64,000 nt of DNA from an uncultured Ruficoccus sp. (GTDB lineage: Bacteria; Verrucomicrobiota; Verrucomicrobiia; Opitutales; Cerasicoccaceae), in NCBI GenBank assembly GCA_965140785.1, contig OZ223481.1:608001-672000 (forward strand), given 5' to 3'. The translations under genes were made by a program, and so were the position numbers. Below, in pieces: positions 277 to 27,654 of this stretch (positions within the stretch are counted from its first letter, which is position 1; each line of letters opens with the position of its first letter). Under the pieces are notes generated by a model. It was not told where the DNA came from. It saw only the letters and a program-made list of their open reading frames with translations, and searched no databases.

Positions 277-446
277 GACCTAAAAAGTCACTAGGATTTT
301 TGTCCAGTTGAGGCTATTCAGGGCAAATTCAGGGAATGCTTAAAAATCGAAAAATATCGATTAAATGCCTGATATGCAGAGGTTTACGCCTAAAATAGCA
401 TGGTGCGAGCGGAGGGAATCGAACCCTCATCTCAGGCTTGGGAAGC
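277..446. repeat. Left att direct repeat (includes displaced 46-bp tRNA-Gly 3' end at 401-446)
   Basis: Matches 27475-27654 with 6 substitutions and one 10-bp indel by eye; 401-446 is identical to 27609-27654. Confidence 0.95.
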
Positions 447-483
447 GGCCGGACACCCGCATTGTTGTGAGGAATTGTCGATT

Positions 484-540
484 AGGTCACTAAAAAGTCA
501 CTAGAATTTTTGACGAGCCTTCTCTCGCGTCTAGTGACTT
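484..540. promoter_or_regulatory. Putative integrase arm-type sites, left arm
   Basis: AGGTCACTAA 484-493, AAGTCACTAG 495-504 and inverted CTAGTGACTT 531-540; the same 10-mer occurs three times at 27466-27502. Confidence 0.65.
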
Positions 541-610
541 TTGCGCATTTTGGGCGCCTCCGAATCCGGGTTCGAATGACGTGATTTCGCGGCAATGCAC
601 ACAGCTTGAA

Positions 611-1087
611 TTACTCCCCCAATTTCTCGCGGATGGCCTTGAGCTTTTGGATGGTCTGCCGGTCTTTCTCCCGGTTCATTGCGCTCTTGGCCTTGATCAG
701 CCCGTCGAAGTCGAGGGTGCGCACGGAACCGAAAACCAGCCGGATCTCCCGGGCGTACTCAAGCACAATATCATAATCGCCGAGCCCCAGAATCGACCCG
801 AGGCAGTCCAGGGCTCCCAGGTCCGTGAGCAGGTAGAGGTTTTTGATGGAATCGGCGGTGAAAGCCTCGCGGTTGAGCGCGGGTTTGTTGGGATGCATCC
901 GGTAGCGGGGATGCAGGTCCTCGATCGCGTCATAGAGTCGGCTTAAATTCTCGTCCCCGAGCCGGACGCAGACATCCAGGTCTTGGGTGAGCAGGTCACT
1001 ACCCAAAATCATGGACGCGTACCCGCCTACGATGATGAACTCAACGCGGTGGTCATGAAACCGCCTCAATAGCGTCAGAAAGTCCAT
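611..1087 (-). CDS. Nucleotidyltransferase-family protein
   Basis: IIVGGYA...TQDLDV motif (GG/DxD) and C-terminal LIKAK...REKD. Confidence 0.8.
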   Translation of the reverse strand: MDFLTLLRRFHDHRVEFIIVGGYASMILGSDLLTQDLDVCVRLGDENLSRLYDAIEDLHPRYRMHPNKPALNREAFTADSIKNLYLLTDLGALDCLGSILGLGDYDIVLEYAREIRLVFGSVRTLDFDGLIKAKSAMNREKDRQTIQKLKAIREKLGE

Positions 1088-1265
1088 GGATTTGCTTCAG
1101 GGCCGCTCTGCGCAAAGCCATAGCCTGGGATATAGCCCGGTCGTGACGGACGCAGCGTTCCTGGTAGGAAAGCTCGAGGTTGGCTTCGATCAGGGACATG
1201 TCGCACCCCTCGTCCTGAGCTTGCTCCCAGGCACTTGTTGATGGCAGGCGATCTTCCCCTTTCAT
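1053..1265 (-). CDS. Small protein upstream of and overlapping the nucleotidyltransferase gene (possible partner/antitoxin)
   Basis: 70 aa, DMSLIEANLELSYQERCVRHD; overlaps the next gene. Confidence 0.6.
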   Translation of the reverse strand: MKGEDRLPSTSAWEQAQDEGCDMSLIEANLELSYQERCVRHDRAISQAMALRRAALKQIHGLSDAIEAVS

Positions 1266-1349
1266 TACTACTTACTCTATACGAACGAGGCCATCAGGCA
1301 AGTTCAACCGCATGACGTATTTACAAAAGAGCGCCCTTGCGTCACTAAT

Positions 1350-1499
1350 ATGGCTACGGAAGCCAGGAAAATCCACGCTCTGAAATCCGAGCACAAGAAA
1401 TTGATAGCCCTTTATGAAGAGCCCACTGAGCGCTCGATCTACCGACACGGCTTCCTGGATGCCCTCGAAGCGGCGGCAATGGTGGATGGGGTGGGGTGA
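1350..1499 (+). CDS. Possible 49-aa protein
   Basis: ATG at 1350 to TGA at 1499, MATEARKIHALKSEHKK...; not in the ORF track; no family recognised. Confidence 0.3.
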   Translation: MATEARKIHALKSEHKKLIALYEEPTERSIYRHGFLDALEAAAMVDGVG

Positions 1500-1635
1500 G
1501 CGTACGCGCTATTTTTCAGGTTAAATGAATTCGTGGGCCCTTTGCATTGCTTGAACTCATATTCGGGGATTGGGTTGAGGCAGAAATCTTTTGATAGACC
1601 GCAGTCGGAGAACGCAATAGAACACAGATATTATC

Positions 1636-4125
1636 ATGCCCCGGAAAGCGACCGCACACAAACCCGCGAAGCCAAAAGGAAAAGCCAAGCAACCTCGTGA
1701 TCTGTTTATTTTAGGCTTTGATGCAGAGTGGGTCCGGGATCGCGAGAACGTGAACGAAAACCGCATCCTGAGTTATCAGTGGTATGTTATCAATGGAAGT
1801 AAACGAGGTGGGGGCCTGTTTCTTACGAGAGAAACGGGTCGCCTGGGTTTCGCAAAGTTCATTTCTCTCAGTCTTGAAGATGCCAAGCAGCAGGCGTTGT
1901 TTAAGCACTACCCTGAGACCGTTATTCTTGTGTCCCACTTTACGCGTGCAGACCTGAGTTCATTCAGTGATTACCATAGTGTACTCAAGAAATCTTTCGA
2001 TAACGTCCGTAAAAGCTATACCAGCTTAGGGACCACCTACAAGGTTACCTTGACGGACAGCAATCGGAACCAACGTAAGATTGACGTCACGCTGAGGGAT
2101 ACGATGCATATCGCTCCCGCCGGAAGTTCGCTGGAAGCGTTGGGTGAATTGCACAAAGTGAAAAAAGTTACCCTGCCGGCGGGTGCTATTGAGCATATGG
2201 ATGAACTTCTGGAGACGAACCCGGAGTTATTCAAACAATATGCTGTCAGGGACGCGGAGATTACGGCCCTACATGCACTGAAGATGGCGGAATCCTCCGA
2301 AAAGATGTTTGGTGAACGTGAAGTACCGATCACCCTGGGCGGGATGGGGGTGAAATATTGTCAGCATTTATGGCGTGCCAATGGGATGACCCCCTTGAGG
2401 GTTCTGGGACAGCACGAGGTCGCTAGGACATTCTTCGATGAGAAAACCCGCCGCCGAAAGAAGGTGAAGGAAATTCAGTTTATTCCTGAAGTGTCAGCGT
2501 CTGAAAACCTTGTCATTGATGCCTATCATGGTGGTCGAAATGAATCCTTTTTCTTTGGGGCGACGCCTGAAGATGATTGGCGGGATATCGATTTGAAAGG
2601 AGCGTATTCGACGGCTATGGCCACGATTCGTCAACCCGTCTGGAAGCGTGTCGAGCACACGACGGACGTTGACCGTTACGATCTCGATACCATGGGGTTT
2701 GCTTACGTTTATTTCGTTTTCCACCAGGAGATGCGATTTCCTGGACTACCTGTGAGGCACGATGGCAGTCTCTTTTTCCCTCGGGAGGGGCGGACCCATG
2801 CAACTGCTTCAGAAATCGCGTTGGCCCGTCTGCAGGGTGCTAGGGTTGAAGTGTTGGATGGAGTTGTCGTACCTTTAGAGCAGGATAACTACCCCATCCG
2901 CGAGATCGTACTGAAGGCAACGCAGTCCCGCAATAACGCGAAAACGACACTTGAGAACAAACTCTATAAGGAGTTGATCAATTCGTTCTACGGGAAATTT
3001 GCGCAGGGGCTAAGGCGTAGCCGTGGGTTGAATACGCGTTCAGGGGAGATTGAGGATTTGCCGCCGTCGAAAATTACGCAGGCATATTTTGCGGCGCATA
3101 TCACCGGACTTGTACGAGCGGTTCTTAGTGAGATCATGAACCGCATTCCTGAGAAATACGATGTAATCAGCGTGACGACGGACGGCTTCATTACCAACGC
3201 GCCTGAAGAGGTGACGGCGGAAGCCTCTCAAGGACCTATTAGCGCAATTTTCAAGCAAGCTCGCGGGATATTGACGGGTAGCGACGATAGCATCTTGGAA
3301 GAGAAACATCGCGTTCGGCAGGTTCTCTCGTGGGCAACAAGGGGGCAGGCAACGCTTAAATCGGCTGATGGGGGAAAGGCCATTTTAGCTAAAGCAGGAA
3401 TTCAGGCTCCGAGAGAGTTGAGCGCGGAAGGCCAGAACCAATGGGTCGTGGACCTGTTCAAGAACCGTGACGAGAATAGTAAGCTGGAGATAACGCAACT
3501 CAAAGGAATGAGTGCTATGTACCATGAGGAGTCCGGTGGGTTGGTCGATTTGCATAAAACCCGCTCGTTGCAGATGGATTTTGATTTTAAGCGTCAAGTT
3601 AATCATCATAAAAAGGGGATGCGAGCCGTTGATGGGATGGATCATGTATGGTTTAAAACATACCCTTGGCAATGCATAGACGACTGCGTTCGTGCCCGGA
3701 ATACGATTCAGCGTTTCCGTAGCGAGGAGAAGCGATGTCTAAAAACGCTTGATGATCTGTATCATTTCCAGCGATGCTACGAAGCGACCGCACTTCCTGG
3801 AGGATTCAACCGTACACGAGGCGGCGGGACGGTTGATGATGCCGTTCGTGTCCTTATACGCGCGATGGTTCAGGACAAGTGGAACTTGAGCTTAAAGGGT
3901 AGAACCCACACGGAGTGGTGTGAGTGGTTTGGACAGCATGGTTATTCGGTATCCATCGATCAGTTTAAGAAAGCATCGGCCAATCCTGTCATTTCCAATG
4001 CAATAGAGCTGGGGGCTGAGGTGTCTAAACTGATCGATCTAATAAAATCAGAATTCCCTGAGTTCGATCATAACATCCTCCTTACGATGCGCCCGAAGAG
4101 TGAGGATTCGTCTGATGAGGAATGA
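1636..4125 (+). CDS. Family B DNA polymerase, primer-independent piPolB-like
   Basis: ExoI GFDAEW, ExoII HFTRADL, ExoIII YAVRDA, YHGGRNE, motif A DLKGAYST, motif B KELINSFYGKFAQ, motif C SVTTDGF (TTD rather than DTD), EKH...WATRG; 829 aa. Confidence 0.9.
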   Translation: MPRKATAHKPAKPKGKAKQPRDLFILGFDAEWVRDRENVNENRILSYQWYVINGSKRGGGLFLTRETGRLGFAKFISLSLEDAKQQALFKHYPETVILVSHFTRADLSSFSDYHSVLKKSFDNVRKSYTSLGTTYKVTLTDSNRNQRKIDVTLRDTMHIAPAGSSLEALGELHKVKKVTLPAGAIEHMDELLETNPELFKQYAVRDAEITALHALKMAESSEKMFGEREVPITLGGMGVKYCQHLWRANGMTPLRVLGQHEVARTFFDEKTRRRKKVKEIQFIPEVSASENLVIDAYHGGRNESFFFGATPEDDWRDIDLKGAYSTAMATIRQPVWKRVEHTTDVDRYDLDTMGFAYVYFVFHQEMRFPGLPVRHDGSLFFPREGRTHATASEIALARLQGARVEVLDGVVVPLEQDNYPIREIVLKATQSRNNAKTTLENKLYKELINSFYGKFAQGLRRSRGLNTRSGEIEDLPPSKITQAYFAAHITGLVRAVLSEIMNRIPEKYDVISVTTDGFITNAPEEVTAEASQGPISAIFKQARGILTGSDDSILEEKHRVRQVLSWATRGQATLKSADGGKAILAKAGIQAPRELSAEGQNQWVVDLFKNRDENSKLEITQLKGMSAMYHEESGGLVDLHKTRSLQMDFDFKRQVNHHKKGMRAVDGMDHVWFKTYPWQCIDDCVRARNTIQRFRSEEKRCLKTLDDLYHFQRCYEATALPGGFNRTRGGGTVDDAVRVLIRAMVQDKWNLSLKGRTHTEWCEWFGQHGYSVSIDQFKKASANPVISNAIELGAEVSKLIDLIKSEFPEFDHNILLTMRPKSEDSSDEE

Positions 4126-4151
4126 GAAACAGGTAACGTTTGGACCCTCAA

Positions 4152-4269
4152 AAACTACGAAAATCGGACGTTTTTCGTAGTTTATTTGCGTCGATTGTTG
4201 TTTGTAAGTACTTGCTTATAAGTATATAATGGAATAGGTTCCGTAACCGGGTATGGGTATACCCGAACC
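4152..4269. repeat. Hairpin + 19-mer module, copy 1
   Basis: AAACTACGAAAA-tcggacgt-TTTTCGTAGTTT (4152-4183), then CGTAACCGGGTATGGGTAT (4242-4260); recurs at 23131-23240. Confidence 0.85.
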
Positions 4270-4370
4270 ATGTTAGCGCACCAGCCTCCCTCGCATAGTT
4301 TCTAGACGCATTAGGCTAGTTCCAGTTCTTGCTGATGTTGTAGGCGATGACACTCAGAACCCTTGTGCGT

Positions 4371-5006
4371 TTACCTGAAATTCCGCTCTGCCATTTTGGG
4401 TACGAGCACCACCGAAAATGCTTTGCTGACAAATATTCTTAGATGGTAACCCTTTTGGACGGATGAGTACTCCCAGTAGGAAGGGATTCGTTTGTTGGTA
4501 AAGTAGTCCGTCCTGTACTTTACGTTTAGCTCAGGGATACCGTAGGAGCTCATGAATAATTTCGCGAAATCACGTCCTGTGAGGTCTGCTACTTTAAAGA
4601 GGTGGTTGACGCCTTCCTCGGTAAGCATGAAACCGATAACAACATTTTCGTAAACATAGACTGCGCCGTAATTTACCCCGTTTACTTCAAATTGGTTAAT
4701 GATCTGTGGACTATGCCCGATGGGAAAGACGAAATCCGGTGGAATATCCTGTTTCAAATACTTGATGTTCCCCTCGACAACTTGATTCAGTTGGCTGGTA
4801 AACTCTCTTGCCGCCATGCCGGGGTATAGCCCGTGGACGATCAAGCCTGCGCTATACTCGGGTACATAAAAGCGAGAGTCAGGTATGGATTGCCTGGTCC
4901 CTCCTTCATCGGGATTTTCCGTTTGAGCCGTGGCAACGGATACAACATTCATGATGCCGATAAGCAGGGCGAGGTGCAGGGTTACATTAGGCAGTAGGTT
5001 TTTCAT
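4371..5006 (-). CDS. Hypothetical exported protein
   Basis: 211-aa ORF with signal-peptide-like N-terminus (…VSVATA|Q); overlaps the upstream gene. Confidence 0.7.
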   Translation of the reverse strand: MKNLLPNVTLHLALLIGIMNVVSVATAQTENPDEGGTRQSIPDSRFYVPEYSAGLIVHGLYPGMAAREFTSQLNQVVEGNIKYLKQDIPPDFVFPIGHSPQIINQFEVNGVNYGAVYVYENVVIGFMLTEEGVNHLFKVADLTGRDFAKLFMSSYGIPELNVKYRTDYFTNKRIPSYWEYSSVQKGYHLRIFVSKAFSVVLVPKMAERNFR

Positions 5007-5458
5007 TTTGTGGGCTTTATTTTGATTAAATCGTGTATGTCAGGCTGCCTATGGATGCGGACCGCTAACACGGTGATTGGCAGCCGAAAGCTCTCCGTAA
5101 CCTGTTCCAGGCGCAGCAGGTATTTTTCGTCGGAGGGACTTTCGATAATCAGGATGATGACCGCCTGGTTCCCTGACTCCGCCGCGTAGTTCAGGCTTTG
5201 TCCAATGGCCTCGGCCCACTTGTCCGCGAACTCCACCTCGATCGCGTACTTATCTGTCAGGATGTCGCAGCGGGTTCCGTTGGGAAGAACGACTTCGGTA
5301 TGACCATCCAGAACGCCCGCCGCCTGCTCCTGATAGTAAGACTCGGGATTTTTACGTGCCGCTTCCAGGGATGTGACTGCCAGCAGAAGGGGAAGGAGGT
5401 ACCTCAGCCGCAGGTACTGGAACAAGCGCTCTGGCGGTATTTTAAAGCCGTTTCGCAT
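5003..5458 (-). CDS. Hypothetical protein with PD-(D/E)XK-like motifs and a hydrophobic N-terminus
   Basis: E..LPNGTRCDILT..YAIEVEFADKWAEAIGQSLNYA; N-terminal LRYLLPLLLAVTSLEA. Confidence 0.65.
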   Translation of the reverse strand: MRNGFKIPPERLFQYLRLRYLLPLLLAVTSLEAARKNPESYYQEQAAGVLDGHTEVVLPNGTRCDILTDKYAIEVEFADKWAEAIGQSLNYAAESGNQAVIILIIESPSDEKYLLRLEQVTESFRLPITVLAVRIHRQPDIHDLIKIKPTK

Positions 5459-5697
5459 GTTTAAAGTCGATTCGCATGTCTTGCGGGCCGGGTCAGTGGA
5501 GCGGGGATCTACCTTGCGGGTGTAGCCGGTTGAGCGGTTCGAGGTCGTGGTGGCAGATTTTCGGATGGTGTGCGGTTATGGAGGCGTGATCCGGGCATGA
5601 ATGCACAATCACCTCATGATCATGGGGTCTGTGTGTCAATTAAAAACCTTACGTTCATGGGGTGTCCTGCCGAACCCTGCGCTCGTATGGTGGTCGG

Positions 5698-5971
5698 GTG
5701 AATAATTCTCTGACGGAACTGGGCGATCGCCTGCGGGCATTACGGGCCAAACACGGCCTCACGCAGGAGGAATTTGCCCAACTGGCTGGCATCGGCTACA
5801 AGTTCTACCAGCAGATCGAGGGAGCGCGTAAAAAGGAGATCTGGCTCTCGACCGTCGAACGTCTCGCCGCCCCCTACGGCCTGCGCGCCTGGCAACTCCT
5901 GGCTCCCTGACATGCCCGAAGATTCCAAGCTGACCCGCAAAGTCCCCAGCAGCCGGGTGCATCGGGGGTAG
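5698..5971 (+). CDS. XRE-family HTH regulator (apparent frameshift near 5905)
   Basis: LRALRAKHGLTQEEFAQLAGIGYKFYQQIE; frame stops at 5910 and plausibly continues as PDMPEDSK...RG* to 5971. Confidence 0.7.
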
Positions 5972-6138
5972 GCTAAATCAAACGCGAAATTCGAGAGGGA
6001 GGTTGATACGAAATCCCTCAACCTCTTCGGTCTGCCCGGACGAATAGTCTAGATCATGCTGAATTCGGTACTTCGAATAAGTTTTGAACTATCAATATAT
6101 ATCTTGCAGATGCTATGTTATCACCCTGTAATACAGTG

Positions 6139-6290
6139 ATGCCTATTACTGAAAGCTTACCGGATCTCGTTAAGTCCGTGCGAAAACAGCTAGGACTGAG
6201 TCAAGAAGGCCTGGCGAGGGAGATTGGTGTCAGTTTTTCAAGCATTAGCCGGTGGGAAAGCGGCAAAACGGCACCCATGCCCCTGCAACG
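6139..6290 (+). pseudogene. XRE-family HTH protein, apparently truncated
   Basis: LVKSVRKQLGLSQEGLAREIGVSFSSISRWESGKTAP, then unrelated sequence. Confidence 0.6.
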
Positions 6291-6371
6291 GAGACAGTCT
6301 AAAGGAACGCCTGGGGGAGGAGGCGAGGGTCCGGATTGCGGCGACCACGTTTTCGATCTATGCCTTCGAGG

Positions 6372-6479
6372 CTCTTTGAGAATGCGATTTTCCTCCAACA
6401 GGTAGTCGATGACTGTCTGCTGTTTACGCCCCTGACCACTCGGCCAGCCCAGTAGAAATGTCAGTAGAGCTGTAAATTG
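6372..6479 (-). pseudogene. N-terminal fragment of an integrase-core (rve) transposase
   Basis: LLTFLLGW...KQQTVIDYLLEENRILKE resembles the W.NRQQQ.VIDYL.EENR.L N-terminus of PVC rve transposases. Confidence 0.55.
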
Positions 6480-6877
6480 TGTATCCAAAGTAACGTATTC
6501 TGTTTTTCTGCAATTAGTTATCAAACATAGGTTCTCTATCTGAGGATCATGAGGTTGTATGGGGCAGAATCGAAATTGTCGTAATTATCAAACCTTTCTA
6601 CGCTTTGATTCCCATCCTTGGATCTTCAATGACAAGGTTTATGACGGATTACTGATCGACAGTTTTGTAGTCATAGCTTCTGTCTGTCGTTTTTTTTTGC
6701 GAGTCGTCGAGGGTAGAGAATATGCAACACTCTTAGTCGTTGTTTTTAGTCGCAACGTTCTTGTATTCATTGATTTGAATTGGTTCAGATTTAAAACACT
6801 TTCCAGTCCTGAGCTACTTTTGTATATTTTCACAATCAACTTCCGTTTATGTATTGTTTAACCTCATCACAAATATC

Positions 6878-7909: not shown

Positions 7910-8007
7910 TCTTCATCCGATTATTATGTACACAGATTTCCGGCCAGACTTGTCTGTGCTGGCCGGGAATCATTTATCTTCCCCGTCTGATTTGAAAAAA
8001 TACGATC

Positions 8008-8733: not shown

Positions 8734-8805
8734 TAGGTGTAGTGTATGATCTGATAGATATCGGAGTAACGATATTCTATGTTCTAATTAAAATTATTTT
8801 ATATC

Positions 8806-9837: not shown

Positions 9838-9848
9838 ATTTTATTGTT

Positions 9849-17348: not shown

Positions 17349-17404
17349 TGCGGGTCAGGCCTGCGATGTGCTGCATCTCTGATGCTGCGTTGTTGCCGGT
17401 AGCA

Positions 17405-18466: not shown

Positions 18467-18494
18467 AATCCCCTTTGATATGTATTTATATGCA

Positions 18495-19580: not shown

Positions 19581-19626
19581 AGCTTAATATTGCGATTTTA
19601 AAGGAATAAATCGCTGGTTTGATTGC

Positions 19627-20117
19627 TTAACTTATACGGAATTTACGCCTATAGGATTGCGGGGTAAGACCAATGACTTTTTTGAATCCGCGGTTGAAGT
19701 GGGCGCTGTCGGCAAATCCCAACTGGTGGGCAATCTCTGAGGATGTCGCGTTGCTGGAAAGCAGGCGGCGGCATGCGCGATGAATCCTTCGGCGTTGGAA
19801 ATAATCGCTGGCAGTCAGTCCTGTAGTCATCTTAAAAAGTCGACAGAAGTGTGATGCGGATGCTCCAGAATGGGAGGCAATCATTTTCATATCGGGCGTT
19901 TCTCCGGTACGTACCGGTCGTTCGATTTCCAGTAGTCCGCGCATGACGGAATCGGGCCATGCTCTGCTGGCTGTTGCATTGAACTCGCGTACGTAGGAGC
20001 GAATCATGCGGATCAGGCACTTAAGAAAGCAGGCCTCAAGGAACAGCGTCTGTCCGTCGGGGGAATCGCCCTTGCGTTGAAGTTGTTGAAAGTCGACAAG
20101 ACATTCGTCTAGCTGTC
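19627..20117 (-). pseudogene. AraC-family regulator, 5' part displaced by IS3
   Basis: SHFCRLFK...IAHQLGFADSAHFNRGFKKVIGLTP; upstream sequence is the IS3 left end. Confidence 0.8.
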
Positions 20118-21162: not shown

Positions 21163-21440
21163 GTAAGCGTCACGTGTAGCACCATCGGATATGGCTTGTC
21201 TTGGCCCTTGTGGTCGTATGTGGGCGAGCTACGACGGTTATGACAGTTACGACTCAGGCTGCGTGCGGCGCTGTGAGCCGTTTGCTTTTGGCAATGGCGA
21301 CAGGAGTCATACTCGGGATGCGTCGAGTGGTGGCAGCCGGGAGGGTTTTGAGCAGGAAGAGGATGTAGGGGTCGAGGCCGTGTCGCTTGGCGGACTCGAT
21401 GAGGGTGGAGAGGATGGCGGAGGTTTCCGAGTCGATCATC
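21163..21440 (-). mobile_element. IS66-family right-end remnant (TnpC C-terminus plus IR)
   Basis: GTAAGCGT at the IS3 breakpoint; SAILSTLIESAKRHGLDPY matches the IS66 C-terminal motif. Confidence 0.7.
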
Positions 21441-21446
21441 ATATCC

Positions 21447-21555
21447 CAGCTAAAAGTAAAGTCCCCCCTCTTGCTGCCCCTGCATACGAGGCGAGTACGG
21501 AAGGGGAGCTTTTCTGGGAATGTAAACCATGGTTTACACTTTGGTGGTCGGCATG
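21447..21555. repeat. ~105-bp direct repeat, copy 1
   Basis: Near-identical to 22189-22293; perfect palindrome TGTAAACCATGGTTTACA at 21521-21538. Confidence 0.92.
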
Positions 21556-21630
21556 CTGACCCAAACGTAGAAGTGCAATTAACATTTAAATTATTGACAT
21601 GACCCCTTCCTCTCCTGCAATGACACTGTT

Positions 21631-22067
21631 ATGACTACCGATAGGTTTGAAAAAAAGCTCTTCGAGAAGTAAAAAAAGAACAACCGGATTTTCAAAAAGC
21701 AGTTCGGATTCTAGAAGAAGGCATAGCCTTGGGGTCGGGTGAGTGCTCTTACGCGCTGGGAACGTGGTACCTTCATGGCGAACATGTCAAAAAAAACATG
21801 AGACGTGCAATATCTCTGTTGAGAATAGGGGTAAAGTGTGGAATTGCAAATGCTTGCTACGATTTAGCAGTATGCTATGAAAATGGAGCCGGTGTAAGGA
21901 AAAATTTATCCAAAGCATTTGAGTTATATACATTGGCAATGTTAAATGGAGATAAGCAATCGATTATGGAAATTGGGAGGTGTTTCTATTATGGGATAGG
22001 AGTTGAGGTAAATAGGAAGGTCGCTAGAGTATGGCTTGATCACGCCAATGCGTTAGGTCTAAAATAG
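21631..22067 (+). CDS. Sel1-like repeat protein (frameshift in A7 run at 21650-21656)
   Basis: YALGTWYLHGEHVKKN, YDLAVCYENGAGVRKN, EIGRCFYYGIGV; AT-rich; ATG at 21631 is out of frame by one base. Confidence 0.8.
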
Positions 22068-22095
22068 AGGCTTACAAGCAGACAGCATTCTTGTG

Positions 22096-22190
22096 GTGCA
22101 GCCACAGTTTCAGCTTCTCTTGTGCATGTTGGCGGGTTGGATGAATCGCCAACAGCAGCAGCTGATCGAGTATTTTCAGGTGGTGCGTCA
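22096..22190 (+). pseudogene. N-terminal fragment of an integrase-core (rve) transposase
   Basis: Reads VQPQFQLLLCMLAGWMNRQQQQLIEYFQ; same family as 6372-6479. Confidence 0.6.
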
Positions 22191-22293
22191 GCTAAAGAAA
22201 AGCCCCTCTTGCTGCCCCTGCATACGAGGCGAGTACGGAAGGGGATCTTTTCTGGGAATGTAAACCATGGTTTACACTGTGGTAGTCGGCATG
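22189..22293. repeat. ~105-bp direct repeat, copy 2
   Basis: Matches 21447-21555; palindrome at 22259-22276. Confidence 0.92.
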
Positions 22294-22330
22294 TCTTGGC
22301 ACTCTTGAGGGCGCGGGTGTCCGCTTCTGC

Positions 22331-23101
22331 TCAGTTCAGCCCTAAGGTTTTGTCGAGGAGTTGGTGGAGGCGGTGGGTGCGTTCGGGGAGGAGGCCGATG
22401 CGGCCCTTGAAGACCTCGGTGAAGGCGTTCTGGAGGCTCCAGGCGGTGCGGGGCTTAAAAACCTCATGCCGGGGGTGGCGCCATTCGTGCAGGACTTTGG
22501 GGATGTACCCGTTGGCCATGACACCGGCATCCACAGCGCGGATGATGAGGTCGTGGGCGCAGCGGTCGTTGAGGCGGACGCGGCGGTAATAATCGACCCG
22601 CCGGTCGTGTCGGTCCCAGTAGCGTTTGAGGCCCGCGACAGCATCCATGGCCAGCGCGGGCAGGTCTTGAAGGATGCGCGGGGTGTGTTTGCGAGCGAGT
22701 TGTATCTCCCCGGAGAAAGAGAGATTGTCGCAGACGAGGACTTGGCTTCCGGCAACGACCCCGGCGGAGAAGCGTTGGTCATGGCTGTTGCGCACACCGA
22801 CGACGTAGTTGTATTCGAGTCCCGATACGTGGGCGTCGATTTCGAGCAGGCCAAAGTACCGGGCGCGGTCATGGGTGAGCCCGTGGGCCTGTCCGGCGAC
22901 GGTAAAACCCTGTTCGAGCAAGGCGATCTCGACGACCTGCAAGAGCTGGATGTGCGGAATGGGCCTCCACGTGCGGGTGGCACGGGGCGTTTCGGTCTGG
23001 GCAAGTTCGCTCAGGCTGATGGCATGGCTACCGTGGTGCAGGAGCAGGTTGCAGCGCTTGGGAGCGGCGGGTGAGACGGGTTCGAGGGTGTCTGTGATCA
23101 T
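22331..23101 (-). CDS. DUF932-family phage/plasmid protein
   Basis: TWRPIPH, RNSHDQRFSAGVVAG...VCDNLSFSG, RKHT, TAWSLQNAFTE. Confidence 0.82.
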   Translation of the reverse strand: MITDTLEPVSPAAPKRCNLLLHHGSHAISLSELAQTETPRATRTWRPIPHIQLLQVVEIALLEQGFTVAGQAHGLTHDRARYFGLLEIDAHVSGLEYNYVVGVRNSHDQRFSAGVVAGSQVLVCDNLSFSGEIQLARKHTPRILQDLPALAMDAVAGLKRYWDRHDRRVDYYRRVRLNDRCAHDLIIRAVDAGVMANGYIPKVLHEWRHPRHEVFKPRTAWSLQNAFTEVFKGRIGLLPERTHRLHQLLDKTLGLN

Positions 23102-23130
23102 GGTTTTTGTGGGTTGGATTTGAGGGTTAA

Positions 23131-23243
23131 AAACTACGAAAAATGTTCGATTTTCGTAGTTATTGGAAAATGCTTACCAGCCTGCATGGTCGATGAATAA
23201 AGGCCCCGTTCGTCGCGGTGTCGTAACCGGGTATGGGTATCCC
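23131..23243. repeat. Hairpin + 19-mer module, copy 2
   Basis: AACTACGAAAA-atgttcga-TTTTCGTAGTT (23132-23161), then CGTAACCGGGTATGGGTAT (23222-23240). Confidence 0.85.
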
Positions 23244-23311
23244 AGATGGCTTTTACGGCACCGGGCGGCATCGGTGAGGTGGGCAGGCTGATGGAGGGTG
23301 CGGGAAAAGAC

Positions 23312-23346
23312 AAAAACCCCGCCCCGGTGGAAGGGCCGGAGCGGGG
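23312..23346 (-). terminator. Intrinsic terminator-like hairpin
   Basis: Minus strand CCCCGCTCCGG...CCGGGGCGGGG followed by TTTTT. Confidence 0.6.
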
Positions 23347-23374
23347 CTGTATTGACCTGTCATGACATGCAGGC

Positions 23375-23611
23375 TCAGCGGTAGCGTTCGCGCTCCCGTT
23401 CGTACTCGGGGTATTCCGGCATGAAGGGCGAACGCCTCACGGCCCCCACTGCGTAGCCGATGGCCCCGATGAGGACGGCCACGGAGATGACCAGGAACGG
23501 ACTGAGTGCTTCCTTGGCCTCGTTGACGGCTCCGATGGCTACGGGCCCCACAAGCGTCCCGACGCTGTAGGCCGTGAGCGCGACGAGTGCGAGCTTAAGG
23601 ACGGCATTCAT
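23375..23611 (-). CDS. Small membrane protein
   Basis: 78 aa, two hydrophobic segments, overlaps the upstream ORF. Confidence 0.6.
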   Translation of the reverse strand: MNAVLKLALVALTAYSVGTLVGPVAIGAVNEAKEALSPFLVISVAVLIGAIGYAVGAVRRSPFMPEYPEYERERERYR

Positions 23612-23867
23612 GGTCGGGCGGGTTGCGGGGATTGTTCCTGGCCGGGAGGTACGGAGCCCGATGCTTATACCGGGCCGCCCGTACGAGGCTGCTTCCCCAG
23701 ATCAGTGAGCAGGCGACCGAACAGCCCCCGACCCAGTACAGGGCATGAACCAGGGGAAGGAGGGACGGCTGCTCGACGGGTGGAGGCGCGGGTGGCTCGT
23801 CGTGGTCGTTGAGCATGAAGAGGCCCGCCCCCAGGCTGAGCGCGGCGATTATGATGGTCTGGATCAT
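23595..23867 (-). CDS. Small membrane protein
   Basis: MIQTIIIAALSLGAGLFML...; ATGA overlap with the nuclease stop. Confidence 0.55.
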   Translation of the reverse strand: MIQTIIIAALSLGAGLFMLNDHDEPPAPPPVEQPSLLPLVHALYWVGGCSVACSLIWGSSLVRAARYKHRAPYLPARNNPRNPPDHECRP

Positions 23868-24685
23868 CGCTCGCCTCCCGTCCATTTCGCGCACCGGGAA
23901 CGGAAGCTGCACCAGGCGCAGTGCATCCCCGGCTGCGGGTGGAAACGCTCGTGGTAGATGCCGTCCACCGCCGCGCAGGCGATGTCGAGCACGCGTTGCT
24001 TTTCCTTATCGGTGGCCGCAGGGAGTCGGTGGACGATAACCTTTGGTTTCTTGGTTTTCACGAGGAAGACCAGTTCGCGTCCCTCGACGTGTTCGTCGGT
24101 GGCCGATTCGATCAGCAGTTGGTAGAGCGTGAGCTGGACCTCGTGCTGGAAGGCTTCGAGCTGGACATCCGGTGTGCTCGCACAGGTCTTGTAATCGACC
24201 GGCACGTTGCCCGGACGCACGAGGTCAATGTAGCCGAGTACCGGGCTGGGAATCGCCGGCAGGTCCTCCTCCAACTGGACCTCGACGCCCAGCGGAAGCT
24301 CCTCCATCCGTCCATGGTCGGAGTCCAGGTAAGCTTCGACGATGGCAACGCCTTTGTCGTGGTTGGTCTGACGTGTATTCGTATTTGGATACGAGGCGGC
24401 CTCTGCCGGCGCATTAAACGCCGCCGTGAAGGCCTTGAGCACCGTCTCCTTGTCATGGCACTCGCCGCGCCAGCGAGCGCGGTGGAAGTGCTGGAGGGCG
24501 GCATGGACAGCCTTGCCCAGGTGCAGGCTGGGTGAGATCGGTTCGGGCAGCTTGAGGACTTTTTTGTACCAGAACTTCAACGGGCAGGTCAGGTAGAGCT
24601 TGATCGAGCTCGCGGAGATGTGGGCGAGCAGGCCGTCGGTCGATGGCTGCTGGCCGTTGCGGTTGTGTTCGAGCGGCTGGATCAT
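23864..24685 (-). CDS. PD-(D/E)XK nuclease, Cas4/RecB-like
   Basis: HISASSIKLYLTCP, GKAVH, GYIDLV, VDYKT, QLTLY, HCAWCSFRSRC; ATG at 24685 overlaps the upstream stop. Confidence 0.88.
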   Translation of the reverse strand: MIQPLEHNRNGQQPSTDGLLAHISASSIKLYLTCPLKFWYKKVLKLPEPISPSLHLGKAVHAALQHFHRARWRGECHDKETVLKAFTAAFNAPAEAASYPNTNTRQTNHDKGVAIVEAYLDSDHGRMEELPLGVEVQLEEDLPAIPSPVLGYIDLVRPGNVPVDYKTCASTPDVQLEAFQHEVQLTLYQLLIESATDEHVEGRELVFLVKTKKPKVIVHRLPAATDKEKQRVLDIACAAVDGIYHERFHPQPGMHCAWCSFRSRCAKWTGGER

Positions 24686-25155
24686 GAGCGTGCCCTTCCT
24701 TTGGTCGGGCCGTAGGTGCCGATCAATTCGTCGATCAGCCCCGAGGCCTGCATCTTGTTCAGGTGCGCGAGCGGGGCGCGGAAGCGGCTTTGGGCCAGCT
24801 CCTCCAGTGCGTCGCGGGTGATGCCGTGGTCTTTCATCAGCCGTTCGATCAGGCCCTTTTGTTTGAGGGAGCAGGCCCATTCTCCCGGCTGACGGTTGAC
24901 GTTTACCCGGCCCGGCGGGACTCCCATGGAGATCGCCGGTGACGGGGCTCCAGTTCGGGGCGGGGAGGGGAGGAATCCGGTTTGCTGGATGTCCCGGTCC
25001 ACCGCGTCCTGGAGTTGCCGATACAGGTGCGTGCTGGCTTCGTGGATGTGCGCGAGGTCGTTGACCTCCGTGCGCACGGTGATCGAGTATTGATGAGATG
25101 AATACGCGGGCAGCCCCAGTTTTTTCGAGTAGTTGGCTTCGAGCGTGATCGCCAT
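24682..25155 (-). CDS. Hypothetical mobile-element protein
   Basis: MAITLEANYSKKLGLPAYSSHQ..., CSLKQKGLI, LNKMQASGLID; AAGGA RBS upstream. Confidence 0.75.
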   Translation of the reverse strand: MAITLEANYSKKLGLPAYSSHQYSITVRTEVNDLAHIHEASTHLYRQLQDAVDRDIQQTGFLPSPPRTGAPSPAISMGVPPGRVNVNRQPGEWACSLKQKGLIERLMKDHGITRDALEELAQSRFRAPLAHLNKMQASGLIDELIGTYGPTKGRARS

Positions 25156-25187
25156 AATGGTTCCTTTGCTTGCGACCGTGCAGGTAC

Positions 25188-25222
25188 AAAAAAGCCCGGC
25201 GAGGGGTCGGCTCGCCGGGCTT
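25188..25222 (-). terminator. Terminator-like hairpin ~30 nt upstream of the 25155 start
   Basis: AAGCCCGGCGAG-ccgacc-cCTCGCCGGGCTT followed by TTTT on the minus strand. Confidence 0.7.
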
Positions 25223-25613
25223 CTGATAGCGGGTCAGTCCGCCATCATGGATATATAGCGCACTTGCGGGTTTTATTGCAGGACGAGGGCAGTTCGATTG
25301 GGCCTGTTTGGTTGAGGTGTCAAAAACCGCAGTATCCGATGGTTAATCGCCTGTGGGCCAGCTCAGGATTTTTTCGTTAAAAACAAATGGTTAACTTTAT
25401 CTTGTTTTTGGAAATGCCTGTCGCGTCGGAAGGGGGGTGTGTTGCGCCTCATTTGTCATTTTTTTTGGCCCACTTTCACGGGGAAAAAGGGCCTTGCTCG
25501 CGAAATTGGACCCTTGTTCGGGATCGATTCGACCTTGCTCAGGTTTTCCAATGGCCGGTTTTCGGGAGCGTTGTGGAATTGCATTTACGGGCGGCAGGCG
25601 TCAAAACTTCTGG

Positions 25614-26033
25614 ATGGCTCCTGATGAGTTGACGCCGCCCTATCCCTTTTCCCACAGAACAAGTCCCGAAGATCTGCGGGCCTATCATGAGGCAATGGAA
25701 CGGGATGCAGTCACCTCGCTTTTTCGGAGATGGGCTCAAGAAGAGGAGGCCCGGGATGCCGAGCTTGAGCGCAAGGAGCAGGAGCAACTCGTGAAGCGCG
25801 AACTGCAAGACACGCTGCGTAAGCTGGCAGATAATAGCGACGCGATGAAGACCGCCTCCGCGTTGAATCATAAAATCTGGATGGGACGGCAGGAGGCTGC
25901 GGACTATCTGGGGATTTCAACACGGACGCTCGACCGAAAGCGGGAAACGGGGACGCTACGTGGCTATCTCGTGGAGGGGACGAAAGCTTATCGTTTTAAG
26001 CGTTCAGATTTAGACGCATTGATGGAGGGCTGA
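25614..26033 (+). CDS. Excisionase-like HTH protein
   Basis: WMGRQEAADYLGISTRTLDR...YRFKRSDLD; convergent with the integrase. Confidence 0.8.
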   Translation: MAPDELTPPYPFSHRTSPEDLRAYHEAMERDAVTSLFRRWAQEEEARDAELERKEQEQLVKRELQDTLRKLADNSDAMKTASALNHKIWMGRQEAADYLGISTRTLDRKRETGTLRGYLVEGTKAYRFKRSDLDALMEG

Positions 26034-26058
26034 AGGGACTGACGCTTCGGCTTGTGTA

Positions 26059-27432
26059 TCAAGTAGGCGTAGGTTCCTTTCGGCTCCAGTGTCCGCGTGG
26101 CGTGGATTTGAGGCCGAGTTTTTTGAGGTGTTTCCTGACCGCTTGATCGGAAACGCCCAAGGCGCAGGCGATATGGGTGACGGGTTGCTGCTTGACCAGC
26201 ACTTTCAGATCTTCACGCGACGGCCAGTCGGCCTTGTGTGCATGGGGATCGACTTTGCGTTGTAGCGTGTAGGTAGTCTGGGAGGGAGTGATAGCGAAAA
26301 AGGCTTTTCCCGCGGCATTCGGGGCCATGCCCTTGTAAAACTCCTCCAGCGTCTGTTGGCTGCGGTGGCCAGTCCATCCGCAGACTTTTCCGGGGTTGGA
26401 GGTGAAGGCGACCCCATAAGTGGCAAAACTGTGACGGGCGGCATTGTGGGGATACTGGATACCGGCGCTTACGCAAAGCCGATGACGGCGTCGATCGAGG
26501 TTCTGCTTGTCCAGCATGACATGGCTGTTGTCGTCCAGGAAGGGCTTTAGCCAAGACCAGAGCGTACCGGGCAGCTTCTCAATGTAGCGAGGGAGCGGGC
26601 GTCCCTTGCGCTTTCTCTTGGCTACCTCGGGGCGTATGTTAATCGCCTTGTCCTCAACATGAATGTCCTCGGGGGAGAGGCGTTTGATTTCCTCGGTCCT
26701 GATTCCGGCGAAGAAGGCCAGAGCCAGGCAGGGGAGAAGACCAGGGTCTTTCTTTTCGGCCTCGCGGAAGAGCTTTTCGACATCGTCAACACGGAGGAAC
26801 TCCTTGGCCGGCGCATCTTCGCGTTTGTATTCGAGGGCTTCCGCAGGCGAGTTGGAGATGAAGCGGAACTGCCGCTTGGTACACCATTTGAAAAACGTCT
26901 TATAGGCGCGAAGGTAGTTGTTGTAGGTTGTGTCGGAGAAGGGGAGGTCGTCCAGGAGCTCTTCGAGCATTTCGGGTGTAATATCCCGGATGGGTAATGT
27001 GCCGAGCGATTCACTGAGAAGGTTGAAGGTGGATTTCATCCCGGCGACCGTCGTATCCCGAAAATCCGGATAGGCCTTGTCTTCGTACTGCTTGAGCGCG
27101 TCGGTGAGGGTGATCCCTTCGTCCTGGGGATGCCTTTCAATCCAGAACTTAGCGGCGTCTCGCAGGTCAATATCCTTCAAGATGGCTTTTGCCTCCCGGT
27201 ATTCTGCCAGTTCCGCCTGGGTCAGGTTTCCGCTGATTCCCAGCTCCTGATGGGTCTGTCTTTGTTGCCGGAGCCAGGCCTCCGCCGCCCCTTTGGTGGC
27301 AACGGTTTTCTCCTTTTGGGCATAGATGCGTTTGCCCGTTGGGGAAAGGCGCGTCGTAGGGATTTGCGCCCGGGCTTTCCACTTACCATTCGGCAGTTGG
27401 CAGGGGTTGGGCCGGGTAGGAGAGGCGGTCAC
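26059..27432 (-). CDS. Tyrosine integrase with a C-terminal HTH extension
   Basis: AGIRTEE (R), HNAARHSFATY (HxxR), TGH, FY (Y); adjacent to the att/tRNA. Confidence 0.92.
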   Translation of the reverse strand: MTASPTRPNPCQLPNGKWKARAQIPTTRLSPTGKRIYAQKEKTVATKGAAEAWLRQQRQTHQELGISGNLTQAELAEYREAKAILKDIDLRDAAKFWIERHPQDEGITLTDALKQYEDKAYPDFRDTTVAGMKSTFNLLSESLGTLPIRDITPEMLEELLDDLPFSDTTYNNYLRAYKTFFKWCTKRQFRFISNSPAEALEYKREDAPAKEFLRVDDVEKLFREAEKKDPGLLPCLALAFFAGIRTEEIKRLSPEDIHVEDKAINIRPEVAKRKRKGRPLPRYIEKLPGTLWSWLKPFLDDNSHVMLDKQNLDRRRHRLCVSAGIQYPHNAARHSFATYGVAFTSNPGKVCGWTGHRSQQTLEEFYKGMAPNAAGKAFFAITPSQTTYTLQRKVDPHAHKADWPSREDLKVLVKQQPVTHIACALGVSDQAVRKHLKKLGLKSTPRGHWSRKEPTPT

Positions 27433-27474
27433 ATACCTAGTGAATCGAACCCGCCTCGATTTTTCAAGTCACTA

Positions 27475-27654
27475 GACCTAAAAAGTCACTAGAAGTCACT
27501 AGGATTTTTGTCCAGTTGAGGCTATTTGGGGCAAATTCAGGGAATGCTTAAAAATCGAAAAATATCGATTAAATGCCCGATATGCAGCGACTTACGCCTA
27601 AAATAGCATGGTGCGAGCGGAGGGAATCGAACCCTCATCTCAGGCTTGGGAAGC
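27475..27654. repeat. Right att direct repeat
   Basis: Matches 277-446; carries AAGTCACTAG at 27483 and 27493, with a third copy at 27466. Confidence 0.95.

Follow-up and report, generated by a model that had tools for sequence, protein, structure and literature searches.

Positions 274–27654 of the DNA stretch analyzed here (64,000 nt, referred to as the window) probably represent an integrated pipolin composed of four modules, in which a piPolB would serve as the replication module of a chassis that is common in the genus. The island is a real mobile element, as seen from its anatomy and from its presence in one genome and absence from another, while its DUF932/Cas4-like/integrase backbone is not pipolin-specific and also occurs in polymerase-less elements, which are the more numerous kind in the genus. 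The features of the island are collected in Table 1.

Table 1. Features of the island and its target site (window positions).
Feature	Position	Strand	Remarks
Distal att repeat (attL, ExplorePipolin naming)	274-446		401-446 is a copy of the 3′ 46 nt of tRNA-Gly(CCC)
Inner left arm	447-560		two copies of the 10-nt AAGTCACTAG, at 495 (+) and 531 (-)
158-aa ORF	611-1087	-	weak nucleotidyltransferase-like match, DUF6036, E 0.002, under the Pfam cut-off
piPolB	1636-4125	+	829 aa, no internal stop; Ala567 at the place of E. coli Lys623
Palindrome-bearing non-coding stretch	4150-4293		3′ of PolB; again upstream of DUF932 (23129-23273) and in the sister element
Two ORFs, 211 and 151 aa	4371-5458	-	open reading frames
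Conserved non-coding stretch and small HTH_3 regulator (6115-6405)	5684-6405	+	Pfam; DNA similarity to the sister element
Cargo slot	6298-22188		15.9 kb
Sugar-utilisation cluster	6854-18547		within the cargo slot
IS30 transposase	18544-19521		cargo slot
IS3 integrase-core ORF, 188 aa	20677-21243		cargo slot
DUF932 protein	22331-23101	-	first gene of the conserved backbone module
Two small hydrophobic proteins, 78 and 105 aa	23375-23912	-	kept in all G001 backbone copies
Cas4-like PD-(D/E)XK nuclease	23864-24685	-	273 aa from an ATG overlapping the upstream stop codon; C-terminal CxxCx5C
157-aa two-part protein	24682-25155	-	always adjoins the nuclease
Excisionase-type HTH protein	25437-26033	+	TIGR01764, PF12728
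Tyrosine integrase, 457 aa	26059-27432	-	PF00589; phrog_1, E 4e-29
tRNA-proximal arm and att repeat (attR)	27455-27654		three AAGTCACTAG words, 116 nt, then the tRNA 3′ part
tRNA-Gly(CCC)	27609-27683	-	intact; integration target; sole tRNA of the window

Borders and Mobility of the Island

The island measures 27.2 kb, is low in GC (about 50–52% across 447–22188 vs 62% in the host DNA), and is bounded by direct repeats of 162 nt (285–446 and 27493–27654, 96% identical) that overlap the 3′ part of the tRNA-Gly(CCC) gene. When a 10-nt indel is allowed, the repeats reach out to 274 and 27472. Their six mismatches all fall between 319 and 383, leaving an identical core of 63 nt (384–446 = 27592–27654), which includes 46 nt of the tRNA 3′ part. 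The word AAGTCACTAG occurs six times in the window, exclusively at the two ends of the island, those on the attR side lying at 27466, 27483, and 27493; 1.5 matches are expected, and none of 100 shuffles reaches six. These words are candidates for arm-type sites to which the integrase or the excisionase binds. The island thus combines a piPolB, a tyrosine recombinase, an excisionase, and att-like repeats at a tRNA, which is the working definition of a pipolin. A preliminary description of this DNA had proposed a complete pipolin-like element at a tRNA-Gly, with repeats over the tRNA 3′ end, an integrase, and an excisionase-like gene, and all of these components were confirmed.

G002, another genome of the genus, carries on a single contig both the left flank, which reaches window position 205, and the tRNA side, which begins at window position 27493, with 161 nt between them, so that 27 kb present in one genome are missing in the other. 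G002 retains nothing of the island there but a scar made up of the arm words, the 116-nt stretch, and some 53 codons of the integrase gene. The island accordingly behaves as an insertion, present in one close relative and absent from another. In the public-run contigs, which break at the repeat, neither an excised circle nor an empty junction of the strain itself was seen.

Genes of the island are under purifying selection, with dN/dS of 0.10–0.17 for four backbone genes and, for the PolB, dN of 0.20 with dS saturated. This bears on the alternative that the island is a fixed remnant, no longer mobile, whose repeats and genes were left from a past integration. The IS30 transposase and the IS3 integrase-core ORF, which we judge to be a transposase fragment, indicate that the island is not pristine, and the six mismatches and the 10-nt indel in the outer 100 nt of the repeats, the loss of the basic residue of KTRG in the polymerase (see below), and the junction not being seen in the contigs also speak for a remnant. 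We nevertheless consider it rather unlikely, because the two copies of the 63-nt core do not differ at any position, the ORFs of the integrase, the excisionase, the PolB, the nuclease, and the DUF932 protein have kept their full length, with low dN/dS wherever it could be computed, and G002 lacks the island at this site.

Identity of the Polymerase

The 829-aa protein had been described beforehand as an intact PolB with exonuclease, YxGG, A, B, and TTDG motifs, which agrees with the 26-sequence alignment. The exonuclease residues D29/E31 (ExoI) and Y202/D206 (ExoIII) lie in invariant columns, and they are followed by YHGG at 297–300, motif A (D319..Y324), and motif B (K445..Y452-G453-K454). 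Motif C reads SVTTDG (512–517, D516), while the two tectivirus rows show YCDTDS; the motif of piPolBs is SxTTDG, with Thr in place of the first Asp of DTDS (PMC5695915). The KH-X8-xTRG element is formed by K557-H558, eight residues, and A567-T568-R569-G570, of which K557, R569, and G570 are invariant across the 26 rows.

The sole Pfam match is PF03175 ("organellar and viral" type B, E 9.5e-13), and the best solved fold for the AF2 model (pLDDT 89.5) is phi29 polymerase, with Z 21.0, rmsd 3.8, and 506 of 570 residues aligned (chain 6–575), all other family-B polymerases giving Z of 13.1 or less. Since so much of phi29 polymerase is covered, most of its TPR1 and TPR2 regions would probably have counterparts in the model, as judged from the overall alignment. 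These matches would suit a protein-primed (phage or plasmid) or casposon-type PolB, an assignment that is largely refuted by the remaining evidence and that we regard as extremely improbable. In tblastn, the PolBs of E. coli, Citrobacter, Enterobacter, and Buttiauxella align over residues 26–810 with 32–34% identity and E of about 1e-124, as opposed to the phage pPolBs, including those of tectiviruses, whose matches have E of 6e-4 or worse and cover 19–37% of the protein. The pPolBs of phi29, Bam35, and PRD1 share with it the overall fold and the exonuclease and palm motifs, but they lack KH-X8-xTRG, which here takes the place of KxY, and differ at motif C, as well as in the extra C-terminal region of about 180 residues (~647–829) that the window PolB has in common with piPolBs. 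No terminal-protein gene was recognized among the window ORFs, and none adjoins the PolB gene; the direct repeats at the tRNA would fit site-specific integration rather than a linear protein-primed genome, and the island carries a tyrosine integrase instead of the Cas1 of a casposon.

The phylogeny leads to the same assignment. The window PolB pairs with that of another genome of the genus (G001, support 100) within a five-row verrucomicrobial group (96), which is sister (99) to a group with the enterobacterial piPolBs. The plasmid piPolBs of Staphylococcus and Fusobacterium branch outside of these groups, and the tectivirus pPolBs serve as a distant outgroup. The tree, which had been suggested as a check, comprises 81 rows, after removal of 8 that were duplicates or fragments, and was obtained by a quick search under LG+G4, with SH-aLRT as the sole support measure; two of its outgroup branches are very long, and casposon and RNA-primed PolBs were left out. 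Within this sampling, the window protein falls inside the Gram-negative piPolBs and not with protein-primed or phage PolBs. By family membership, as read from its sequence, the polymerase is a piPolB, and de novo primer-independent synthesis is predicted for it on the same basis.

One feature of piPolBs is absent from the window PolB, in which Ala567 replaces the basic residue that opens the KTRG motif (K623 in E. coli). The position is basic in 199 of 205 aligned rows (166 Arg, 33 Lys), and the non-basic rows are the window PolB (Ala), the sister protein (Thr, two rows), one probable fragment (Pro), and the two tectivirus outgroups. The residue numbering was checked on the E. coli ORF, where K613/H614/K623/R625 fall as published when counted from Met22. 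The WATRG reported in the preliminary description was thus read correctly and constitutes a real, rare deviation. As a consequence, the window PolB may prime or extend poorly unless something compensates for the change.

Relation to Known Pipolins

The E. coli pipolins (3-373-03_S1_C2 type, Redrejo-Rodriguez 2017, PMC5695915) resemble the window element in having a polymerase that is homologous over its full length (compared through the ORF of locus L061) and that shows the same SxTTDG and KH-X8-xTRG architecture. They also have in common a tyrosine recombinase and an excisionase, long att-like direct repeats over a tRNA 3′ end, and a layout of core and cargo. While the E. coli pipolins use tRNA-Leu, the window element is inserted at tRNA-Gly(CCC), and it differs further in the Ala at the position of Lys623 and in a metabolic rather than defensive cargo. 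According to the 2024 survey, the core of the enterobacterial type consists of piPolB, IntSXT, IntP2, DUF2787, and WYL (PMC11551731); neither DUF2787 nor WYL had a match among 25 window ORFs (Pfam, E up to 0.01).

A much closer relative is found in G001, which belongs to the same genus as the window DNA and whose PolB is letter-identical to an NCBI protein named as Ruficoccus sp. ZRK36, in line with the verrucomicrobial host proposed beforehand. Its PolB is 73% identical to that of the window, and the order of PolB, small HTH, cargo slot, DUF932, two small proteins, Cas4-like nuclease, 157-aa protein, and integrase is the same, the backbone DNA being 78% identical across 3.1 kb. It is likewise repeat-bounded at a glycine tRNA and has likewise lost the KTRG lysine. 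In contrast to the window element, it targets tRNA-Gly(TCC), located at the PolB end, with perfect 62-nt repeats. Its terminal recombinase has 389 aa (phrog_1, E 1e-15), to which the window integrase has no match at E 1e-5, and a search for an excisionase homologue in the element found none. Its cargo comprises a Type III restriction-modification system, a DUF4062/ATPase protein, and a Gabija-like pair, where the window has sugar genes.

The Ruficoccus sp. ZRK36 assembly is a piPolB holder in the supplement of the 2024 survey (Mateo-Caceres & Redrejo-Rodriguez, PMC11551731), which also lists at least 15 other Verrucomicrobiota assemblies. The window element is therefore not a new kind, verrucomicrobial pipolins being already catalogued. 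The identification as a PVC-lineage pipolin stands, and the question of cataloguing, which the preliminary description had left open, is settled by this listing.

Polymerase-less Siblings and the Role of the Polymerase

G001 contains five backbone copies and one PolB. The polymerase-less siblings (G001 copies 1, 2, 4, and 5, and elements in G002 and G003) share with the window element the module of DUF932, small proteins, Cas4-like nuclease, 157-aa protein, and integrase, with proteins 70–94% identical to those of the window, as well as the layout with a cargo slot and integration at tRNAs. Perfect 53-nt repeats flank copy 5 at tRNA-Lys(CTT), and the G003 sibling occupies the same tRNA-Gly(CCC) as the window element; bounding repeats were searched for in copies 1, 2, and 4 and not found. 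Unlike the window element, the siblings have no piPolB, and their cargo consists of metal efflux, methyltransferase, or GmrSD genes. The DUF932 and Cas4-like nuclease genes of the preliminary description are real, and its contrast between this backbone and that of enterobacterial pipolins holds, but the backbone is not one of pipolins as such. No description of these siblings was found in the pipolin literature from 2024 or in that on piPolB with primase-helicase.

The siblings hint at the role of the polymerase. At its position, G001 copies 2 and 5 have BT4734-like_N + DUF5906 proteins of 748 and 765 aa that match the PHROG "DNA primase" and "primase/helicase" families (E 1e-35 to 1e-17); these genes lie at the distal end, and their orientation with respect to the 151-aa ORF and DUF932 is that of the window PolB. 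In G002, a primase gene of this type and a DUF932 gene are 19 kb apart on one contig. Because polymerase-less siblings carry an AEP-type primase-helicase at the same position, the piPolB is assigned a putative replicative role. The picture of one replication module per element is incomplete, since Pfam reveals no primase-helicase or other replication gene in copies 1 and 4.

These two copies would also suit a scenario in which the piPolB is accessory cargo rather than a replicase, serving the host or the island otherwise, for example in damage tolerance or defence, while the chassis persists by integration alone. Such a scenario gains from the absence of piPolB in four of the five G001 copies and in G003 and G004, which have backbone nucleases, and from the GC content of about 51% for the PolB module and cargo vs 62% for the backbone module, which fits a later import. 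The ExplorePipolin paper moreover calls the role of piPolB still unclear and mentions putative damage tolerance or repair. We consider it unlikely, however, because the gene in the same place and orientation in two G001 siblings is a primase-helicase, which points to replication initiation and not to repair or defence, and because the order of PolB and backbone is unchanged between two elements with different cargo, integrases, and target tRNAs. The pattern of the genus does not generalize, as islands lacking only piPolB are strongly under-represented in Gammaproteobacteria, according to the survey (PMC11551731).

With the piPolB taken as the replication module, the element would work as follows. 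The integration module (integrase, excisionase, and clustered 10-nt arm words) would recombine within the 63-nt identical core derived from the tRNA-Gly(CCC) 3′ part, such that the island is excised as a circle and can be re-inserted. The replication module lies at the far end, where the piPolB would both initiate and continue the synthesis of DNA on the excised element, with no need for a separate primase. The conserved module (DUF932, the two small membrane proteins, the Cas4-like nuclease, and its 157-aa partner) and a swappable cargo slot, here holding the sugar-utilisation cluster and IS elements, complete the element.

Cargo and Accessory Genes

The DNA similarity to the sister element stops at 6297, which sets the left limit of the cargo slot. 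In place of defence genes, the slot carries a sugar-utilisation cluster. Its members are PEP-CTERM-type, DUF1559 prepilin-type, SIS-domain, and 1146-aa glycoside-hydrolase-like proteins, a Gfo/Idh/MocA oxidoreductase, an MFS transporter, and a LacI regulator; an AraC regulator and a Sel1 gene are also present in the slot. Among the left-end genes, the 158-aa ORF was searched for in the sister element, where no relative was found, and the 151-aa protein has 67–71% identical relatives in two polymerase-less G001 siblings. The 157-aa protein and the nuclease are also located beside the piPolB of an unrelated Verrucomicrobiia MAG (L014).

Identity and Phylogenetic Position of the Polymerase

Pipolins are mobile elements defined by the primer-independent family-B DNA polymerase (piPolB) that they encode, whose cellular role remains unsettled. 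The element of the window is a pipolin of a known kind, from a phylum already listed, and the basic classification is unchanged. It makes three modest additions: a rare active-site-adjacent substitution, a metabolic cargo, and a possible swap of replication modules on a common chassis.

Pfam assigns PF03175 alone to the polymerase, and no NCBIfam model matches it. The best of 144 relatives in the protein search is 73% identical and bears the name of Ruficoccus sp. ZRK36 as its source, ahead of proteins from metagenomes and Alphaproteobacteria. Among species genomes, 359 relatives were detected, and the 80 loci kept include those of E. coli, Citrobacter, Enterobacter, Buttiauxella, and Aeromonas (32-34% identity, residues 26-810). 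When the E. coli ORF is numbered from Met22, K613, H614, K623, and R625 are found as in the published numbering of the characterised piPolB (Redrejo-Rodriguez 2017, PMC5695915), and the ORF is therefore a fair stand-in for that enzyme.

In the tree (81 rows), the window protein pairs with that of G001, a genome of the same genus, with a support of 100. The pair lies inside a five-row verrucomicrobial group (support 96). The sister of that group (99) contains the piPolBs of enterobacteria, Aeromonas, Aurantimonadaceae, Methylobacterium, and some Roseobacteraceae; plasmid enzymes of Staphylococcus and Fusobacterium fall outside, and two tectivirus protein-primed polymerases (pPolBs) form a long-branched outgroup. 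The tree left out L082, L083, L084, L001, L040, L041, L048, and L019, which are duplicates or fragments, and was built without casposon, polinton or RNA-primed PolBs. The preliminary description had called the element a pipolin and proposed a tree as a check. The call is borne out both by the E. coli-type relatives and by a position inside the piPolBs, apart from the tectivirus pPolBs. A search of 50,697 phage records gives 11 tectivirus matches only, with E values of 6e-4 or worse and 19-37% coverage.

The AF2 model of the polymerase (pLDDT 89.5, pTM 0.81) has the phi29 polymerase as its best Foldseek match (E 4.8e-17, TM 0.69 on the target). VIA-align places 506 of 570 residues on that enzyme with a Z of 21.0 and an rmsd of 3.8, and no other family-B polymerase exceeds a Z of 13.1. 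No solved piPolB is among the matches of the structure search, and searches of the PDB sequences with the window protein and with a 26-row profile give no polymerase match.

As for the distribution, Verrucomicrobia are never mentioned in the main text of the 2024 survey of pipolins (PMC11551731). The piPolB holders in its supplement do include Ruficoccus sp. ZRK36 (GCA_019603315.1), together with at least 15 further assemblies assigned to Verrucomicrobiota, Limisphaerales, Spartobacteria, and Verrucomicrobiae. The polymerase of G001 and the ZRK36 protein agree in every letter; the genus Ruficoccus belongs to Verrucomicrobiota, Opitutia, Puniceicoccales. Five of the 401 genomes in an even sample of the phylum, which includes the genome of the window, have a PolB match with an E value no higher than 1e-20 (a fragment in one case), and so do 3 of the 41 genomes comprising that genome and 40 close relatives. 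A verrucomicrobial genome of another family, G361, carries two full-length piPolB genes (C12:571028-573400 and 641363-643726; L114 and L117), 70 kb apart on opposite strands of one contig. In an unrelated verrucomicrobial MAG, some 450 nt separate a tRNA-Gly(CCC) gene from the end of a piPolB gene (L056:35-2890), and glycine tRNAs may be a recurrent target of the pipolins of this phylum.

Substitution in the KTRG Motif

The position of E. coli K623 was inspected in an alignment of 205 rows (the window protein, 84 loci, and 119 database proteins, with 2 tectivirus outgroups included). It is occupied by Arg in 166 rows and by Lys in 33. The exceptions are Ala567 of the window protein, Thr in the sister protein of G001 (two rows), Pro in one probable fragment, and the two outgroups. 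The remark in the preliminary description that the polymerase reads WATRG instead of KTRG is thus right, Ala567 standing where 199 of the 205 rows have Arg or Lys. The rest of the motif is intact, with K557, H558, the eight-residue spacing, and T568-R569-G570, as is SVTTDG. At the level of the alignment, the deviation is rare and lineage-specific. The E. coli enzyme is crippled by mutation at the residue that matches this natural Lys-to-Ala or Lys-to-Thr change, and the natural Ala and Thr forms offer a ready-made variant for enzymology.

Gene Content and Cargo

The features are collected in the table. All of the genes named in the preliminary description, i.e., the polymerase, integrase, excisionase-type HTH, DUF932, Cas4-like nuclease, and small membrane proteins, are located.

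Features of the pipolin and of its two ends (window coordinates)
Feature	Position	Strand	Remarks
Direct repeat pair	285-446 and 27493-27654		162 nt, 96% identity
AAGTCACTAG copies	285, 495, 531, 27466, 27483, 27493		copy at 531 on the minus strand
Weak nucleotidyltransferase-like ORF	611-1087	-
PolB	1636-4125	+	829 aa
Two ORFs	4371-5458	-	without assigned function
Small HTH regulator	6115-6405
Sugar-utilisation cluster	6854-18547		PEP-CTERM-type protein, DUF1559 prepilin-type protein, SIS-domain protein, 1146-aa glycoside-hydrolase-like protein, Gfo/Idh/MocA oxidoreductase, MFS transporter, LacI regulator
IS30 transposase, AraC regulator, IS3 integrase-core ORF, Sel1 gene			after the sugar cluster; IS3 ORF read as a fragment
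DUF932	22331-23101	-
Two small hydrophobic proteins	23375-23912	-
Cas4-like PD-(D/E)XK nuclease	23864-24685	-
157-aa protein	24682-25155	-
Excisionase-type HTH protein	25437-26033	+
Tyrosine integrase	26059-27432	-
tRNA-Gly(CCC)	27609-27683	-	sole tRNA gene of the window

Judged from its domain content, the cargo would confer a sugar-utilisation trait on the host, which would extend the pipolin cargo slot beyond defence genes. PADLOC, run on 12 ORFs of the window with the sugar genes left out, gives generic Cas4 and HTH matches and no defence system. Among 40 relatives, the 1146-aa protein finds just two matches, both weak and partial. The 157-aa protein belongs to no Pfam family, and its matches in the Atlas are 'hypothetical protein' clusters alone, from viruses and Verrucomicrobiota.

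The extent of the cargo slot follows from a comparison with the sister element of G001, since the DNA similarity between the two ends at window 6297 and returns at 22189. The sister element begins with PolB, a 344-aa ORF, and the same small HTH gene. Its cargo comprises genes for Type III restriction-modification and for a DUF4062/ATPase protein, as well as a Gabija-like pair; next come DUF932, the two small proteins, the nuclease, the 157-aa protein, and a 389-aa integrase-like ORF (phrog_1 at E 1e-15). It is bounded by a perfect 62-nt repeat, which lies on the 3' part of tRNA-Gly(TCC) and again 21.6 kb away. The target tRNA, the end of the element at which it is found, and the integrase all differ from those of the window island. 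Such differences fit an exchange of integrases, by analogy with the exchange described for other pipolins in the survey (PMC11551731). The genes of the nuclease module are conserved and evolve under purifying selection: between the two elements, dN/dS is 0.13 (DUF932), 0.14 (nuclease), and 0.17 (157-aa protein). The window integrase and its G001 homologue give 0.10, and for PolB dN is 0.20 with dS saturated.

Two repeated segments were seen in this part of the island. A stretch of about 145 nt occurs in two copies of 72-85% identity, one right after PolB (4150-4293) and one just upstream of DUF932 (23129-23273). It contains a near-perfect AT-rich palindrome (4150-4182), has pieces at the corresponding G001 places, and could act as operator, terminator or recombination site. 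A 91-nt direct repeat of 97% identity (21465-21555 and 22203-22293) flanks the Sel1-repeat gene on the right-hand margin of the cargo slot and looks like a small duplication from the insertion of that gene.

Boundaries and Insertion at the tRNA Gene

The repeat pair reaches 274 and 27472 if a 10-nt indel is allowed. Its six mismatches are all confined to 319-383, and 384-446 and 27592-27654 are therefore identical over 63 nt, of which 46 are the 3' part of the tRNA gene. Contigs from three sequencing runs of one study break at the repeat, and no junction is seen in them. All six copies of the 10-nt word AAGTCACTAG in the 64 kb are at the two ends of the island, compared to 1.5 copies expected, and none of 100 shuffles attains six; these copies are putative arm-type sites for the integrase or the excisionase.

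The window corresponds to C10:608001-672000 of a 4.36-Mb assembly. One contig of the same-genus genome G002 matches the left flank at 92% identity as far as window 205 and, 161 nt further on, matches window 27493-29535 at 80%. By alignment and tblastn, these 161 nt and the adjoining tRNA-side match constitute a scar, in which arm words, the 116 nt downstream of the tRNA, and some 53 codons from the 5' end of an integrase gene are preserved. The 27 kb are therefore absent from G002, yet a related element was formerly present there. We infer that the outer part of the left repeat, with its 94% identity, is the arm of such an older element, and that a new copy then entered at the tRNA core, displacing the old arm to the far end.

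The 116 nt follow the tRNA in G001 and G002 and lie beside the integrase in the genome of the window, in G001, and in the G002 scar; they were not found after the tRNA of the same-genus genome G003. The latter two observations speak against native host DNA, which we have also considered for this segment, and the 116 nt may well be an element arm left behind by an earlier related insertion.

The anatomy of the island and its absence at the same site in G002 point to excision, in which the integrase and the excisionase would recombine the two 63-nt cores to free a circle and restore the tRNA.

Two further segments lie near the left end. About 80 nt (window 197-276) lie between the left repeat and the flank that the window has in common with G002, and show no resemblance to the element, the sister loci or G002; the region 190-290 was likewise without a counterpart in the element or the sister loci. 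Outside the window, some 400 nt before its first base, about 55 nt of the left flank (L093:11550-11605) have 77-94% identity to many contigs of G001-G004, all of the same genus.

Backbone Copies and Replication Modules

The DUF932/Cas4-like backbone is not specific to pipolins. G001 has five modules of DUF932, small proteins, nuclease, 157-aa protein, and integrase, at about 1.006, 1.033, 1.474, 1.849, and 3.222 Mb (copies 1-5), with one PolB among them. At least two full backbone nucleases are found in G002, whose piPolB, on a 3.7-kb contig, is divided between two frames. At least three occur in G003 and one in a further same-genus genome, G004, neither of which has a piPolB. Two other piPolB-bearing verrucomicrobial genomes, G086 and G361, give no match to the backbone module. 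In the G003 sibling at the same tRNA-Gly(CCC), the integrase is 38% and the nuclease 82% identical.

Copy 5 of G001 is bounded by perfect 53-nt repeats at tRNA-Lys(CTT) and carries at its tRNA end a 765-aa BT4734-like_N + DUF5906 protein, a 748-aa relative of which is found at the distal end of copy 2. Both match the PHROG 'DNA primase' and 'primase/helicase' families (E 1e-35 to 1e-17), and they mirror the window PolB in place and orientation relative to the homologue of a 151-aa ORF and to DUF932. In G002, a 70%-identical primase and a DUF932 gene are 19 kb apart on one contig. The chassis thus occurs together with piPolB both in the window and in a single copy of G001; a primase-helicase accompanies it in two other copies of G001 and, probably, in G002. 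No primase-helicase or other replication gene is recognised in copies 1 and 4, the latter holding a DnaE-like fragment, a WYL protein, and GmrSD; simple searches give no bounding repeats for copies 1, 2, and 4.

It is conceivable, at a little short of even confidence, that piPolB and the AEP-type primase-helicase are interchangeable replication-initiation modules on one integrative-element chassis in this genus. Most likely, the circle would be copied starting from the priming activity of piPolB itself, as suggested by the biochemistry of the family in E. coli and by the primase-helicase that replaces piPolB in the siblings. The survey raised piPolB as possibly 'only a replicative (cargo) gene', and gives islands lacking only piPolB as strongly under-represented in Gammaproteobacteria (PMC11551731), whereas in the present genus the polymerase-less forms are the majority. 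If true, the module swap would be natural-experiment evidence for piPolB in vivo as the primase and replicase of its own element, and a counter-example to the rarity of polymerase-less pipolin-like islands in Gammaproteobacteria. With Ala or Thr in place of the KTRG lysine, this lineage would then have a polymerase that handles the primer terminus differently. A chassis with piPolB, with a primase-helicase or with neither provides a simple comparative and genetic handle on the service of piPolB to the element.

Inside the repeats, the GC content is about 50-52% over 447-22188, 62% over 22189-25262, and 55.5% over 25263-27492, the host DNA to the right of the island having 62%. The PolB module and the cargo are low in GC and the backbone is host-like, which suggests that the chassis is resident in the genus and that the PolB end was imported.

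Two arrangements in G001 may be mentioned here. In copy 4, a 495-aa ORF (L123:9656-11143; G001:C1:1838655-1840142) has DNA polymerase III alpha finger and NTPase domains and is neighboured by a WYL/WCX regulator, a GmrSD nuclease, and an IS66 transposase. At L105 (C1:1000000-1013000), a 76%-identical integrase lies beside the 116-nt arm and a 3' fragment of tRNA-Gly(CCC), 195 kb from the intact tRNA-Gly(CCC) with the same 116 nt in direct orientation (L106, C1:1196000-1209000), and a second backbone copy is found 22 kb beyond the integrase; this arrangement could reflect tandem elements or a large rearrangement.
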